Below are positions 2,240 to 50,358 of a stretch of 64,000 nucleotides of DNA, piece by piece. A program made the translations under genes and the position numbers. The stretch is from Escherichia coli (GTDB lineage: Bacteria; Pseudomonadota; Gammaproteobacteria; Enterobacterales; Enterobacteriaceae): NCBI RefSeq assembly GCF_001677475.2, contig NZ_CP015229.1. One strand, written 5' to 3'. The notes under the pieces were generated by a model. It made no database searches and was not told the DNA's origin. It saw nothing but the letters and a program-made list of their open reading frames with translations. How positions within the stretch are numbered: the first letter of the stretch is position 1; every line of letters begins with the position of its first letter.

Positions 2240-2330
2240 TTATGTTGCGCTTTACTGAGGAAGAGTATTAGACGTCAACTAGTTTTGCCGACTCGCGCCA
2301 ACTATACTGGCCGCACCCTTCAGGGCGACA

Positions 2331-3086
2331 TCAAGTCGCGCTTGTTACTGCCTTCGCTGTCTTTTTCCTGTAGCTTTCCCCTTTCAGTTCGAACATATAT
2401 CCGTGATGGAGCAGCCTGTCTGCCGCAGCCACCGCCATAGTCTCATCCACGAAGATGCTGCCCCACATGCTGAACGGATGGTTACTGGTTATCACCAGGC
2501 TCCCACGTTCATAGCGATGCGCTATTAACTCGAACAGCACACCCGTTTCGGCACTATCGCGTTTGACATAGCCAAGATCATCCACCACTATCACCCGGTA
2601 GCGATCCAGTTTCAGTAGCAGCTCATTCAGTTTCAACTGAGCTCTGGCTTTACGTAGTTCCTGCAACAGCTCTCCTGCGCTGTAGAACCGGGCCCGGTAG
2701 CCCTGACCTACTACGCCATCCACGATCGCTGCCGCCAGATGGCTTTTCCCCAACCCGCTGGCTCCGAACAGCAGAACGTTTTCTCCTGCATCAACCCAGT
2801 CTGTCGTTTCACAGAGTTGCCGGAACTGAGCTCCATTCAGTTCCGGCACCTGACTGAAGTCGTATTCGCTCAGCGTTTTGGCAACTGGCAACCGGGCCTC
2901 CTTTTTATAACGACGCAGTTTTTCACTCTCGCGCCACAGGAGTTCTTCATTGCATAGCGTCAGAAGATAGCGCGATGGTGTCCAGCCTTCTGCCAGCGCT
3001 CGTTTTTCCAGAGCGTGCCATTCAGCTCCAACTCGTGTCAGGCGTAGTTTACGCAGGCTATGTTCAAGGTGATGGATATTGCTCAC
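2331..3086 (-). CDS. istB: IS21-family IstB helper ATPase
   Basis: 251 aa; Walker A GASGLGKSH and Walker B VIVVDDLGY; overlaps the istA stop by 4 nt. Confidence 0.9.
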   Translation of the reverse strand: MSNIHHLEHSLRKLRLTRVGAEWHALEKRALAEGWTPSRYLLTLCNEELLWRESEKLRRYKKEARLPVAKTLSEYDFSQVPELNGAQFRQLCETTDWVDAGENVLLFGASGLGKSHLAAAIVDGVVGQGYRARFYSAGELLQELRKARAQLKLNELLLKLDRYRVIVVDDLGYVKRDSAETGVLFELIAHRYERGSLVITSNHPFSMWGSIFVDETMAVAAADRLLHHGYMFELKGESYRKKTAKAVTSAT

Positions 3087-46545: not shown

Positions 46546-48041
46546 TGCGAACCTCCCTTGCCACGCAGTAGTTGCTCATAACTGCTCAGGTTATGCTGTA
46601 TCACATTGACTACCGGCAACGCCTTTTCTTTTATACCCAGGAAGCGCATCAGCCGGTGCAGATCCACGTTTCCCGGGGTATTCAGCATCTGCTCCATACC
46701 TTTTGCCACGACTGAGATATCGTCGTATCCTGCAGCCAGTTTCAGGGCATGTACCATCAGCCTTCCTGCCATATCGGGCTCCAGATGATTACATAAGCGA
46801 CGCCACAGCCTCCGCCATTCATCGTCCGGCAGGATGTCATTTCTCAGCGTTGCATGGCAGAACGCACCGGGCTTTTTTGCCAGACTGTCGATCACATGTC
46901 GGAAGTCGATACGACGGGCCCGCGTCTTCCCTTTTTCTGGTCTGACGCGAGGGCAGCTCATGACCTCGCTGCTGCCAACGTAACAGCTCAGACGATCGTC
47001 CCATAACCTGACCCGTAACAGTTGACCTACAAGCCGGGAAGGTACGCTGTAGACGACGTGCTTCACATTGATGGTACTGCTGCGACTAACCCTCACAGTC
47101 AGCTCATCATAGTCAGCACTGCGACGAAGCGGCAGCGGTTTCAGATGAAGACGTTCTTCCTTGACCAGATCCTGATTGTTACGGTTGTGCCGCATAACCT
47201 GCTGAGTGATGAAGGCCTGATATTCTTCTATGGTGCTGAAGTCGTTACTGCCCCGCAGTATCAGCGCCTGACAGATACGCCTTTTCAGATGTCCGTGGGC
47301 ACTTTCAACCGAGCCATTTTCGTGGCCCCGACCGGCATTATTGTGTACGCCCTGCATTCCGTAGTGCTGACAGAGAGTAGCATAACGCTCAGTCAGCTCG
47401 CGGCGTCCATCTTCGCCCTGTTGTTTCCATGCTGCCCTCAGGCTGTCCGTTTTATGTTCTACCGGCACTCCGCCCAGTTGTCCGAGGGCTTCCTGCAGGC
47501 CTTCAGCCAGAGCAGAGAAGCTCTCACCACCCAGAACAACCCGCATCCAGCTCCAGTGGCTCCATTCCAGACGGAAGTGATACAACTTATGCGCCAACAA
47601 CTTACCGGCGATGGTGACAACTACACCTTTCAGTTCAGTAAAGTCCGACAGGCCTCGCAGGCCGGGCTGATGTTGCTGGCGGAACATGACCTCCTGCTCT
47701 GTACCATACTGTAGTTTCCATTCGCGAACCCGCCGTTGCATTGTTCTTCGAAGGCTGTTGGGGTACTGGCCGGGATATTTATCCTGTAGCATCTCCAGTA
47801 GAGTTGTTGGTGTCAGAGCCGGCCTCTCTTTCAACAGAGGAACAAGCATGCTGTCCCACACAGCTTCCAGAGGATCTTTGCGTGTGCGCCAGTGCCGAAC
47901 ACTGTTTTTTGCCCACTCTCCTTTTTCGATCCGACGACCAGAACGGACTGAGATACCAGCCTTCATGGCCGAGATATGCTGAGTTATACCTTTCTTACGC
48001 TGAGTCATATAGTAACTGACCTGAGAAGTATTGAGCGTCAC
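46542..48041 (-). CDS. istA: IS21-family IstA transposase (intact)
   Basis: 499 aa, GTG start; continuous frame spanning both fragments of copy 1. Confidence 0.92.
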   Translation of the reverse strand: MTLNTSQVSYYMTQRKKGITQHISAMKAGISVRSGRRIEKGEWAKNSVRHWRTRKDPLEAVWDSMLVPLLKERPALTPTTLLEMLQDKYPGQYPNSLRRTMQRRVREWKLQYGTEQEVMFRQQHQPGLRGLSDFTELKGVVVTIAGKLLAHKLYHFRLEWSHWSWMRVVLGGESFSALAEGLQEALGQLGGVPVEHKTDSLRAAWKQQGEDGRRELTERYATLCQHYGMQGVHNNAGRGHENGSVESAHGHLKRRICQALILRGSNDFSTIEEYQAFITQQVMRHNRNNQDLVKEERLHLKPLPLRRSADYDELTVRVSRSSTINVKHVVYSVPSRLVGQLLRVRLWDDRLSCYVGSSEVMSCPRVRPEKGKTRARRIDFRHVIDSLAKKPGAFCHATLRNDILPDDEWRRLWRRLCNHLEPDMAGRLMVHALKLAAGYDDISVVAKGMEQMLNTPGNVDLHRLMRFLGIKEKALPVVNVIQHNLSSYEQLLRGKGGSQ

Positions 48042-50358
48042 GCCATTTCCTGTTGGATCATGTAAATGACACTCAGGTTACAAAACCGGCCAGAATAATC
48101 GGCGCCAGGCGGACTGAGTTATTGTCGTCTCATACCTCACCAATAATGCCAGGGAGAATATTGCCGTTAGGATTAAACGCTCGCGAAAGGAAGAGTTTCA
48201 GCGCCCCCATGCCCTCCGATGCTTCAATATCACCAATAACCCGGTTAACAATGGCCGCACTCTTCGGATTAGCATCCGCCAACGCTCTGGCTACAATTTG
48301 CAGGGACGATACGACCTCACGCTGCATATCCGTCCTGATCTCATCAATAAACTCTGGCGTTATGCCGTGCTCTTTAAGAATATCCCTGCCTTCCGCCGTT
48401 ACCCCATCGATATCACCGACATGTTTATTAACCCGACTTTGCAATGCCTTAAATGCCTTCAGAATTCCACGGGAATCATCCGCTTTACTAACGGCCTTCC
48501 TGAATGCTGGCAAGAAGTCTGAGTTAACCTCATTTTGTTGATCGGCCCACTGAATGGAGGCTTCTTTCATCTCGTCCAGAGTCAGATCACCCAACGCGGT
48601 ATGGTCTGTGAATATGAGCGACAACCTCTGAACCATTTCTGCCAATGGTGATGCCGAATGCGCCGCGCTAAGGAATGCTTTCACCCTGGTTGGGCGAATG
48701 GAAAACCAGTCAATAGCTGGTGGCATATCTCCGTTTTGTATCGCCTGCGCTATCTCATCAAAGCCGTCGCGCCCAAGGGAGGATGCGTGATTTAACAATC
48801 CGCGAAGTAACGAATTGCTGATACCGAATAATCGGCACCATTTATTCACGTCGGCAACAGGCATTCGAACAAAATGCGCAAGCACTTGTACAAGCTGTTC
48901 ATCCTGGGGATCTGTACGGGAAAGCAGCCTGATCAGATGAATAATGTCTTTGATGCCGGATGCCCGATGTAATAGCAAGCTGGTATATGGAGCAACACCG
49001 TTGTAACTACCGCCGGAAACGGACTCGAAAAGACCGCCGGATATCCCTTGCATGCCTTCGTTTTCCAGTTCCTGAGACACCTGGCGAAGGATATCCTGTA
49101 ACGACACATCGCCGCCGCCAAACATATCCCCCAGCGCCTGGCCCTGGTGCTGTAACTCATCATTGATACGTTGAGCCATCAACTTAAAGGCGGTGGCCAT
49201 ACGCTTCGCGCTACGGTTATTCGCGACGATGAACAACGCGAGTGCTTTCACTTCCGGGGCCGTTTCGCTGAACATATCCCCCTGAGCAATAACATCGGTA
49301 ATATGCTGGCCTGACTCCTTCGATTGCCTTACCAGGTCTACCGCATCTTTCAATGCCGCCAGCGCCTTTTTATCGAGGCTATCCGCTGTCTCAATGCCAT
49401 CAACAATAGTTGTCACAGCCTGCTTGTGCGCTTCTCCTGATAAAGCCTGCATCTGGACAAAATCATTGGCTGCCGCATTAAGCGCCGTCAGAACATTACG
49501 CATATCCGGATCAGGTTCTTCTGCAACCATCCTTACCAGGCGCGCATCCTTATATGCCTTGGCAAAGATCGCGTTTTGTATACGGTCAACAAGTTGCCGC
49601 GTTGGTCGCCCATCTTCCGTTACAAGGCCAGCAGCCTGTGTGGCACCAACTTGCGTCATGAATCCGCGAATAAACGCGTCATTACTGCGGCTAAGCAGAT
49701 CTCCGCTTTCTGACGGATTAAACAGCGCCATCATCGCCGGTGTTATGCTGTCGGCATCAACAAAAGCCTTTTCACTGGCTGCCATTTCCTGAAGATCAGA
49801 AATATTTGAGTCCTTGGCAAACTGAACGCGGTCAACCTTAGTTAACCGGCGGCGCACCAATACAGGAGCCGTCATTGATTCAACCTTTTCAGGTCGTATG
49901 CCGAATTCGGTCGCATGTTCAATCAGGTACTCACGATACCGATCCGCATTGCCGTCCTGATAGGCTTTAATGATTCCCATGGTCCGTCCATTACCTGACT
50001 CAACGGCATTGTCCTCACCAATTATCGGCGCGCCATGGCTGGATAAACCGGAATCGGTAAGCTGAGCAGGCCGCAAATCTTTGGATATCTGGTTAACCTG
50101 AAGAAGGCTGGATGCGCGGGTCCGGTCGCGCGGCTGAAGTTCCTGGGGATAGTCAGGATTAATTTTCCCATCCAGAGTATTGGATACCAAAAGAGCTGAG
50201 GCATCGACGATATCAAACGCTGTTTTTACCTCGTCTCCCTTCGCTGTCACCACATACGAAACCCGCCCATAATCGGGCAGGTTCTTAAGCAGCTCGATCA
50301 GCGTTTCTATGCTGGTGGCAATTACCACCTGATCGCTTAAGCTCATCCCTGTTACGCC

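Follow-up and report, generated by a model that had tools for sequence, protein, structure and literature searches.

A direct pair of ISEc10 copies in a P1-like phage-plasmid, probably arising from independent insertions, disrupts pmgM and ddrB

When two nearly identical insertion sequences in the same orientation enclose 41 kb of a phage-plasmid, do they form a mobile unit, a source of large deletions, or the trace of two separate insertions? The original prediction placed such a pair at outer coordinates 2266 and 48134 of the window (the whole 64-kb stretch of DNA analyzed here), and a repeat search together with BLAST confirmed both coordinates exactly. The repeated element is ISEc10, of the IS21 family, and its two copies are direct repeats. 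Their predicted shared orientation also holds, as istA-istB lies on the minus strand in each and neither copy is inverted relative to the other.

2266..4728, minus strand: ISEc10 copy A, 2463 bp, defective
2260-2265 (left) and 4729-4734 (right): target-site duplication of copy A, GAAGAG, equal to P1 78868-78873
3896..4001: 53-bp tandem duplication in istA of copy A (3896-3948 = 3949-4001)
45725..48134, minus strand: ISEc10 copy B, 2410 bp, intact
46542..48041, minus strand: istA of copy B, 499 aa, IS21-family transposase (NF033546)
45790..46545, minus strand: istB of copy B, 251-aa helper ATPase (NF038214 and PF01695)
45719-45724 (left) and 48135-48140 (right): target-site duplication of copy B, CCTCAC, equal to P1 25318-25323

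BLAST aligned 2266-3951 with 45725-47410 over 1686 bp (1 mismatch) and 3949-4728 with 47355-48134 over 780 bp (0 mismatches). In total, one SNP and the 53-bp tandem duplication separate the copies, the duplication accounting for the surplus length of copy A (2463 versus 2410 bp). The pair had been described as more than 99% identical, which is true of the aligned bases (2409 of 2410), but the value falls to ∼97.8% once the 53-bp gap is counted. Five differences from the closest database copy are common to copies A and B, and at the single SNP between them copy B agrees with that database copy.

The name ISEc10 follows the PGAP annotation "ISEc10 family" of matching copies. Plasmid copies so named are 98.5 to 99.8% identical to the window copies over 100% coverage, and hundreds of plasmid and chromosomal copies of ISEc10 match them within that range. 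The element has the features of the IS21 family: IstA, an AAA+ helper IstB encoded directly downstream, imperfect inverted repeats, and a short target duplication. In copy B, residues 12 to 304 of IstA align with NF033546 at 226.4 bits (cutoff, 160), and IstB scores 266.7 bits against NF038214 (cutoff, 200) and 209 bits against PF01695; the istB start and the istA stop share a 4-nt overlap. The terminal inverted repeats of this copy are imperfect: comparison of the left end with the reverse-complemented right end gives 34 matches in the first 48 positions. Members of the IS21 family duplicate 4 to 8 bp of target, and four independent insertions each showed a 6-bp duplication (GAAGAG, CCTCAC, CAGTTT, and GGGCGG). 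A copy on the RM9088 plasmid has the same termini as the window copies and a 6-bp target duplication. The likeness to ISEc10 extends to the 2410-bp length, the termini, the target duplication, and the overlap of istA (499 aa) with istB (251 aa). Compared with the known ISEc10 copies, copy A is distinguished by one SNP and by its private 53-bp duplication, which puts istA out of frame, and the insertion sites in pmgM and ddrB occur in no complete record searched. ISEc10 transposes actively, as new insertions were selected in E. coli CFT073 (PMC7482066).

Copy A is defective, a point that the original prediction missed. The 53-bp duplication shifts the istA frame after IstA residue 229 and breaks the gene into 233-aa and 271-aa open reading frames (ORFs); therefore, only copy B encodes the transposase. 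The istB gene of copy A (2331-3086) is intact, with a single I-to-L change. CAT microhomology marks the edges of the duplication, which is missing both in copy B and in the closest database copy; its product, the frameshifted 233-aa IstA fragment, had no match on record in public assemblies. It could in principle be an assembly error. Copy A is predicted to be inactive by itself.

The DNA around and between the copies is that of a P1-like phage-plasmid (Punavirus), with 92 to 99% nucleotide identity to P1 across most of the window. Some 60 P1 proteins were recovered in the window in the gene content and order of a Punavirus, and the loxP site is exact. P1 is collinear with the window across both empty sites, and each target 6-mer is single copy in P1. 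All of the predicted contents of the enclosed interval, namely, c1, loxP-cre, pacAB, phd-doc, and darB, were located within it.

4729..45724: interval between the copies, 40,996 bp
13478..14079, plus strand: phd-doc addiction module, 100% and 98.4% identical to P1
15423..18638, plus strand: lpa (late promoter activator), pacA, and pacB
20343..21194, minus strand: c1 repressor, 283 aa, 99.6% identical to P1 C1
21896..21929, plus strand: loxP, exact 34-bp match
30831..37598, minus strand: darB, intact, 2255 aa, 98.6% identical to P1 DarB

The interval begins with the rest of pmgM, followed by pap, humD, phd-doc, pdcAB, lpa, pacAB, and an ANT-like gene. It continues with c1-coi-imcBA, loxP, cra-cre-c8-ref-mat, an autotransporter gene, and a LuxR-type gene, and it ends with lxc-ulx-darB, prt-pro, lydED-lyz, ssb, isaA, hxr, and the 3′ end of ddrB. 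No replicon gene was found in this interval. P1 synteny at both window ends suggests that the replicon, kilA-repL, and immI lie outside the window, as presumably does the P1-equivalent replicon/partition region (repA and parAB; ∼41 to 76.6 kb in the GenBank annotation of P1). Reference P1 itself has resident IS1 and IS5 elements, so insertion sequences are tolerated in dispensable regions of its genome, as here. Those elements, however, belong to other families and are located elsewhere, in the isaA/isaB region and in mod of P1; the window has neither IS1 nor IS5, and a PacB-like gene takes the place of the P1 IS1 region.

Both ISEc10 copies disrupt genes, which had also gone unnoticed in the original prediction.

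2242..5289, plus strand: pmgM (VRR-NUC protein), copy A inserted after codon 8
44943..50346, minus strand: ddrB, copy B inserted at codon 737

Beyond copy A, residues 7 to 192 of P1 PmgM continue from position 4729. No ORF of at least 30 aa spans the left junction of this copy, and a 110-aa ORF downstream had no match on record. Look-ups of gp25 and of PmgM returned common P1-like contexts with intact pmgM only. Two independent ISEc10 insertions 36 bp apart at the 5′ end of pmgM are what raises the idea of a hot spot at this position. In ddrB, the N-terminal part forms a 738-aa ORF (48130-50346), and the C-terminal part comprises residues 737 to 995 (44946-45722). Removing copy A and one target copy in silico yielded a 192-aa PmgM, and the same operation on copy B yielded a 995-aa DdrB; each product has an exact match in public assemblies. 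The exact DdrB match has the same downstream neighbors as in the window, and the ddrB site is empty in close relatives.

Both interrupted genes were scored as nonessential for lytic growth of P1, and lpa, pacA, and pacB were scored as essential (PMC10695390). The Dar proteins are reportedly packaged in the order Hdf/DarA, DdrA, DdrB, DarB, and Ulx (PMC12810830, PMC9024508). As DdrB precedes DarB in this order, the intact darB may be functionally impaired. The loss of DdrB, perhaps along with DarB-dependent antirestriction, is the likelier immediate effect of the pair, although some function might persist in the truncated 738-aa DdrB.

How did the pair arise? The explanation that we hold with good confidence combines independent simple insertions with recombination that limits itself. 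Sister copies of ISEc10 would have entered pmgM and ddrB separately, through simple transposition that duplicated 6 bp of target each time, a reading that we favor because excision in silico restores exactly the known PmgM and DdrB. Copy B would have kept the ancestral sequence and be the sole source of IstA transposase. Copy A would have gained its SNP and the frameshifting 53-bp istA duplication after insertion and thus be nonautonomous, with its ends and istB still intact.

Other origins leave different traces at the flanks. A 45.9-kb composite transposon, or another arrival as a single unit, would have brought in the block of immunity, pac, lox-cre, and darB genes. The layout resembles that of composite transposons in having one IS in two copies around a gene block, here in the same orientation, with intact outer ends and with functional IstA and IstB from copy B. 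It differs in that native backbone is enclosed in native order, and the outer flanks (GAAGAG and CCTCAC) form no common target duplication, each IS instead having its own matched pair. Furthermore, collinearity with P1 covers the enclosed DNA as well as the sequence beyond the copies, so the enclosed DNA is not foreign; removal of a single IS restores alleles that exist exactly elsewhere; and close relatives with the same neighboring genes have an empty ddrB site. We therefore rejected a composite origin on the basis of target duplications and synteny and regard it as highly improbable. The original prediction had reached the same view from separate target-site duplications at the two copies, and that view is borne out by GAAGAG at copy A, CCTCAC at copy B, the collinearity of P1 at both sites, and the known excised alleles. 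IS21-family elements also form cointegrates flanked by direct copies, and a donor circle with a tandem IS junction could have integrated and been left between them. The orientation of the copies fits, but a cointegrate should have just one target duplication, located at its outer ends, and should contain foreign DNA, either between the copies or beyond them. Two separate duplications and unbroken P1 synteny on all four flanks are seen instead; this flank analysis led us to reject the cointegrate, which we rate as the least probable of the origins considered.

Misassembly is a classic problem with 2.4-kb repeats, and the product of the 53-bp duplication is without record in public assemblies, so either one of the copies or the duplication might be an artifact. 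Against this, the flanks of each copy are unique and lie in P1-syntenic sequence, each copy is bordered by a target duplication of its own, and misassembly would not generate matching 6-bp duplications. The copy B junction was moreover repeated base for base in independent SRA assemblies: at least two independent SRA runs yielded Logan contigs, six in all, that follow the window with 100% identity until they stop 27 nt inside the IS. Misassembly of the IS copies themselves was rejected on the basis of the flanks, target duplications, and SRA junctions, and an artifact overall seems about as improbable as a composite transposon.

With independent insertions as the preferred origin, the remaining question is what recombination between the copies would do. 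Recombination between direct repeats excises the intervening DNA, and the copies share uninterrupted perfect homology of >1.5 kb and 0.78 kb. As direct copies, they are a substrate for RecA, and a crossover would release a ∼43-kb circle, made up of the interval and one IS, from a remainder that bears the replicon. The circle would have no recognizable replicon. Missing from the remainder would be c1, the repressor of the lethal kilA-repL operon, and phd-doc, whose loss should be toxic; without lpa and pacAB, the remainder could not make phage either. C1 represses P53, the promoter of the lethal gene kilA (PMC9948254). Deletion of the interval is probably self-limiting, because the remainder should be toxic without c1 and phd-doc and the excised circle should not replicate. 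The remainder would probably kill the host cell and so be counterselected. The pair had been described as a latent source of large deletions; the homology for excision is indeed present, but the outcome is probably self-limiting, and no junction was found. Neither junction, nor the predicted deletion product, occurred in any complete record of the phage, plasmid, and E. coli genome collections. When each IS with its flanking sequence was compared by megablast with PLSDB plasmids and complete E. coli genomes, query coverage reached at most 55%, corresponding to the IS alone; therefore, those two collections contain no relative with either insertion and no deletion junction. The exact 38-nt left-junction sequences of both copies were absent from an IMG/VR scan. 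There is no evidence that the deletion has occurred.

A more active role for the pair, driving large deletions or rearrangements that turn the phage-plasmid into a plasmid-only or defective form, has some arguments behind it. The repeats are direct and perfectly identical over >1.5 kb, inversions and deletions caused by insertion sequences are documented in other P1-like plasmids (PMC6906374), P1-like phage-plasmids reportedly become plasmids through gene loss (PMC10879196), and the interval encodes Ref, a RecA-dependent nuclease (PMC4713147). We nevertheless consider this role unlikely: three annotated collections contained neither junction and no deletion product, the replicon-bearing product should suffer from the loss of c1 (PMC9948254 for kilA) and phd-doc, and the intact P1 synteny indicates no rearrangement so far. 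By inference, the pair is a stable scar of two IS hits and not an active rearrangement system.

IS-mediated remodeling of P1-like plasmids is already well described, and the present arrangement is ordinary. pSvP1 underwent an ISEc84 inversion and pTZ20_1P underwent IS26 deletions and inversions (Venturini et al. 2019, PMC6906374). These plasmids resemble the window in having identical IS pairs in a P1 backbone as recombination substrates and IS insertions within P1 morphogenetic genes. They are, however, already rearranged, with target duplications split between copies, whereas in the window the duplications are matched at each copy, P1 gene order is intact, and nothing has recombined. As the window copies are direct, deletion is predicted, not inversion, unlike in pSvP1. 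We think it very unlikely that the IstA and IstB of copy B mobilize the pair as a 46-kb composite or that the 5′ end of pmgM is an ISEc10 hot spot, and neither idea is backed by any finding here. If the former were true, a 46-kb block with immunity, pac, lox-cre, and darB could move into the chromosome or another plasmid.

The significance of the pair beyond the annotation of this plasmid is small. For assembly, 2.4-kb repeats such as these will break short-read contigs. A common E. coli IS has struck one P1-like phage-plasmid twice, in genes that the phage can spare, and one of the two copies, copy A, is already decaying. The disruption of ddrB may weaken DarB-dependent protection from type I restriction. 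A deletion between the copies would take immunity, addiction, packaging, and the late-gene activator at once; therefore, selection probably maintains a repeat pair that looks unstable.

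A repeat search and self-BLAST of the window recovered one long direct repeat pair, the ends of which match exactly the outer coordinates (2266 and 48134) of the original prediction, where two IS copies in the same orientation had been described as more than 99% identical.

2266-4728, minus strand: copy A of the IS, 2463 bp
45725-48134, minus strand: copy B, 2410 bp
45790-46545, minus strand: IstB of copy B, 251 aa (NF038214, PF01695)
46542-48041, minus strand: IstA of copy B, 499 aa (NF033546)

Self-BLAST aligned 1686 bp with one mismatch (2266-3951 versus 45725-47410) and 780 bp with none (3949-4728 versus 47355-48134). 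The overlap between these alignments reflects a 53-bp perfect tandem duplication in copy A (3896-3948, repeated as 3949-4001) that copy B lacks. The sole substitution is G at 2411 in copy A and T at 45870 in copy B, and the direct repeats share two stretches without any difference, 1,540 bp and 780 bp long. The same-orientation pair is confirmed with one correction: the predicted identity holds for aligned bases (2409/2410) but leaves out the 53-bp indel.

Copy B IstA scored 226 bits against NF033546, the NCBIfam IS21 family transposase model (cutoff, 160), and IstB scored 267 bits against NF038214 (cutoff, 200) and 209 bits against Pfam PF01695; their reading frames share 4 nt. The element termini are imperfect inverted repeats, agreeing at 34 of the first 48 positions. 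Matches were found in 553 PLSDB plasmid records, with full-length alignment at 98.5 to 99.8% identity to copies named by PGAP as "IS21-like element ISEc10 family." The nearest, carried by plasmid p1RM9088 of E. coli RM9088, has identical termini and a 6-bp duplication, CAGTTT. The element is therefore ISEc10, a known active IS, of which new insertions near lpp have been obtained by experimental selection in CFT073 (PMC7482066).

Copy A is defective: its 53-bp duplication puts istA out of frame beyond residue 229, leaving ORFs of 233 aa and 271 aa and breaking the region that matches the IS21 transposase model. The duplicated unit opens with CAT, which also directly follows it, a 3-bp microhomology consistent with an origin by slippage. 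Five differences from the RM9088 copy are common to A and B, and at the only A/B SNP the RM9088 allele is that of copy B; the two are thus sister copies, B having retained the ancestral state and A having gained two private changes. The ends and istB of copy A are intact, and it could in principle be mobilized in trans by the IstA of copy B.

Over most of its length, the window is 92 to 99% identical to P1 at the nucleotide level, and tblastn recovered about 60 P1 proteins; it is a P1-like phage-plasmid. Copy A lies at P1 78868-78873 (window 1-2265 equals P1 76609-78873, and window 4729 onward equals P1 78868 onward) with the target duplication GAAGAG, interrupting pmgM eight codons in; P1 PmgM residues 7-192 restart at 4729. 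Copy B, with the target duplication CCTCAC, interrupts ddrB at codon 737 (window 44647-45724 equals P1 24246-25323, and window 48135 onward equals P1 25318 onward). Both genes were scored as non-essential for P1 lytic growth (PMC10695390). When each IS and one duplication copy were removed in silico, stop-free PmgM (192 aa) and DdrB (995 aa) were reconstructed. Exact copies of the former are found in >4,000 index blocks, and of the latter in five contigs, of the assembly collection; in one of these contigs, ddrB is followed, as in the window, by the hxr, PacB-like, and IsaA genes. The separate duplications, the collinearity with P1, and the restored alleles show that each copy arrived separately by simple insertion. 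An IS21-type cointegrate and movement as a composite transposon, the latter also rejected by the original prediction, are both ruled out, as either would give a single outer duplication and foreign DNA on one side.

The interrupted ddrB encodes a 738-aa truncated DdrB whose reading frame stops just inside the IS and which is recorded in six Logan contigs. The two that we examined, from SRR24416076 and SRR3929499, showed no difference from the window (100% identity across 7023 bp and 4223 bp, respectively), and both stopped at window 48108, 27 nt into copy B; short-read contigs are expected to end at repeats. Read directly, the end of the SRR24416076 contig agrees base for base with the copy B junction. 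Copy B is therefore real and is carried in other public read sets.

The interval between the copies (4729-45724; 40,996 bp) holds P1-type genes, listed in five successive parts, and non-P1 cargo.

Part 1: remainder of pmgM, pmgN to pap, humD, phd-doc
Part 2: pdcAB, lpa, pacAB
Part 3: c1-coi-imcBA, then loxP (21896-21929, exact match)
Part 4: cra-cre-c8-ref-mat, lxc, ulx, darB (intact, 2255 aa)
Part 5: prt, pro, lydED-lyz, ssb, isaA, hxr, ddrB 3' end
11.0-13.0 kb: non-P1 DUF551 and unknown genes
19159-20310: non-P1 ORF6N and KilAC/ANT antirepressor-like gene, 383 aa
26268-29971: non-P1 autotransporter and LuxR-type regulator, in the place of P1 res-mod
42009-42737: non-P1 Tad2-like domain protein, 242 aa (PF11195, E = 4e-18)
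43519-44613: non-P1 PacB-like paralogue, 364 aa

About 2 kb at 11044-13015 (the DUF551 protein and unknown ORFs) stands where P1 has the stretch that begins at the 3' end of pmgT and includes pmgU, pmgV, upfM-O, hot, and lxr. The antirepressor-like gene sits between pacB and c1, where P1 is empty. The autotransporter (1084 aa; PF03797 beta-domain and AC_1 autochaperone domain) and the LuxR/GerE-type regulator (114 aa) are adhesin- or virulence-like cargo on a phage-plasmid, taking the place of res-mod, which in P1 encode type III restriction-modification. The Tad2-like ORF (Tad2 is Thoeris anti-defence 2) splits the isaA region, with ssb on one side and the rest of isaA on the other, and is a candidate anti-defence gene. 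The PacB-like, terminase-like paralogue (34.5% identity to PacB residues 11-289) holds the position of P1 IS1 and isaB and also adjoins intact ddrB in SRR11608754. In mat (25032-25783), the first 44 Mat residues lie in another frame than residues 31-250, so that the gene is either frameshifted or an N-terminus variant; the two Mat-like CDSs annotated in phage JL22 suggest that the split is a lineage feature. Outside the interval, 55021-59341 is the invertible C segment, with inverted repeats (arms 83-87% complementary) and alternative tail-fibre segments S and U; cin lies at 54467-55024. Its S variable parts have diverged from P1 (75-92% identity). No replication initiator was found in the interval, and by synteny with P1, the replicon, partition genes, kilA-repL, and immI probably lie outside the window.

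RecA-dependent crossover between the copies would split off a circle of ~43 kb, made up of the interval and one IS, from a remainder that bears the replicon. C1 represses P53, and kilA expression is lethal (PMC9948254). In a remainder without C1, P53 and hence the kilA-repL operon would be derepressed. The remainder would also be without the phd-doc addiction module, and after decay of the labile Phd antitoxin, the stable Doc toxin would act. Without lpa and pacAB, the lytic cycle would not be completed; lpa, pacA, and pacB, all inside the interval, are essential for P1 lytic growth (PMC10695390). The excised circle would not replicate. Since both products are predicted to be lethal or non-replicating, A/B deletions would be expected to arise but not to propagate, and the pair is more of a stable scar than a source of active rearrangement. 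Neither insertion junction nor the predicted pmgL-IS-ddrB product was present in the phage, PLSDB, and complete E. coli genome collections, which fits counter-selection but is not proof of it. Direct orientation and long perfect homology partly support the predicted latent source of large deletions, but the lethal outcome of such events probably limits it. The structural reasoning of the original prediction holds, but it overlooked this limit, the istA frameshift caused by the duplication in copy A, and the disruptions of pmgM and ddrB.

Related events are known in P1-like plasmids: pSvP1 underwent an ISEc84-mediated inversion and pTZ20_1P underwent IS26 deletions (PMC6906374), whereas the window shows no rearrangement, and conversion of P1-like phage-plasmids to plasmids by gene loss has been described (PMC10879196). 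With a known IS and described IS-driven rearrangement, the finding is already known in kind; the only new facts are the two insertion sites, absent from the collections searched, and the private 53-bp duplication. Another P1-like element has a second ISEc10-like insertion (96.5% identical) in the pmgM 5' end (positions 3290-5790 of our locus from GCA_964039915.1 contig CAXJFJ010000003.1; also positions 1-60 of that from ERR4036101). At the window equivalent of ~4759-4764, it is flanked by a 6-bp duplication, GGGCGG, and runs opposite to copy A, whose own site is 36 bp upstream. It is an independent event; the site could be a target hot spot or simply tolerated. Further P1-like contigs (loci L010, L012, and L014-L016) drop synteny at differing points in the pmgM 5' half (window 4765-4976; equivalents 4826, 4904, 4960, and 4976), and 19 contigs have a 93-aa C-terminal PmgM fragment annotated as its own gene. 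Recombination or insertion seems to have recurred at the pmgL/pmgM boundary. An ISEc10 copy also lies among the tail-fibre segment genes of the 98-kb P1/p15B-like plasmid pe1-39_A (NZ_AP040955.1, 27075-29497), so that this plasmid family has been entered by ISEc10 more than once.

Of more immediate consequence than deletion, the IS pair probably affects anti-restriction. DdrB is a component of the virion, placed before DarB in the order reported for Dar incorporation (Hdf/DarA, DdrA, DdrB, DarB, Ulx), and the EcoB and EcoK anti-restriction phenotype depends on it (PMC12810830; PMC9024508). Therefore, the intact darB of the interval may be functionally compromised by copy B in ddrB.
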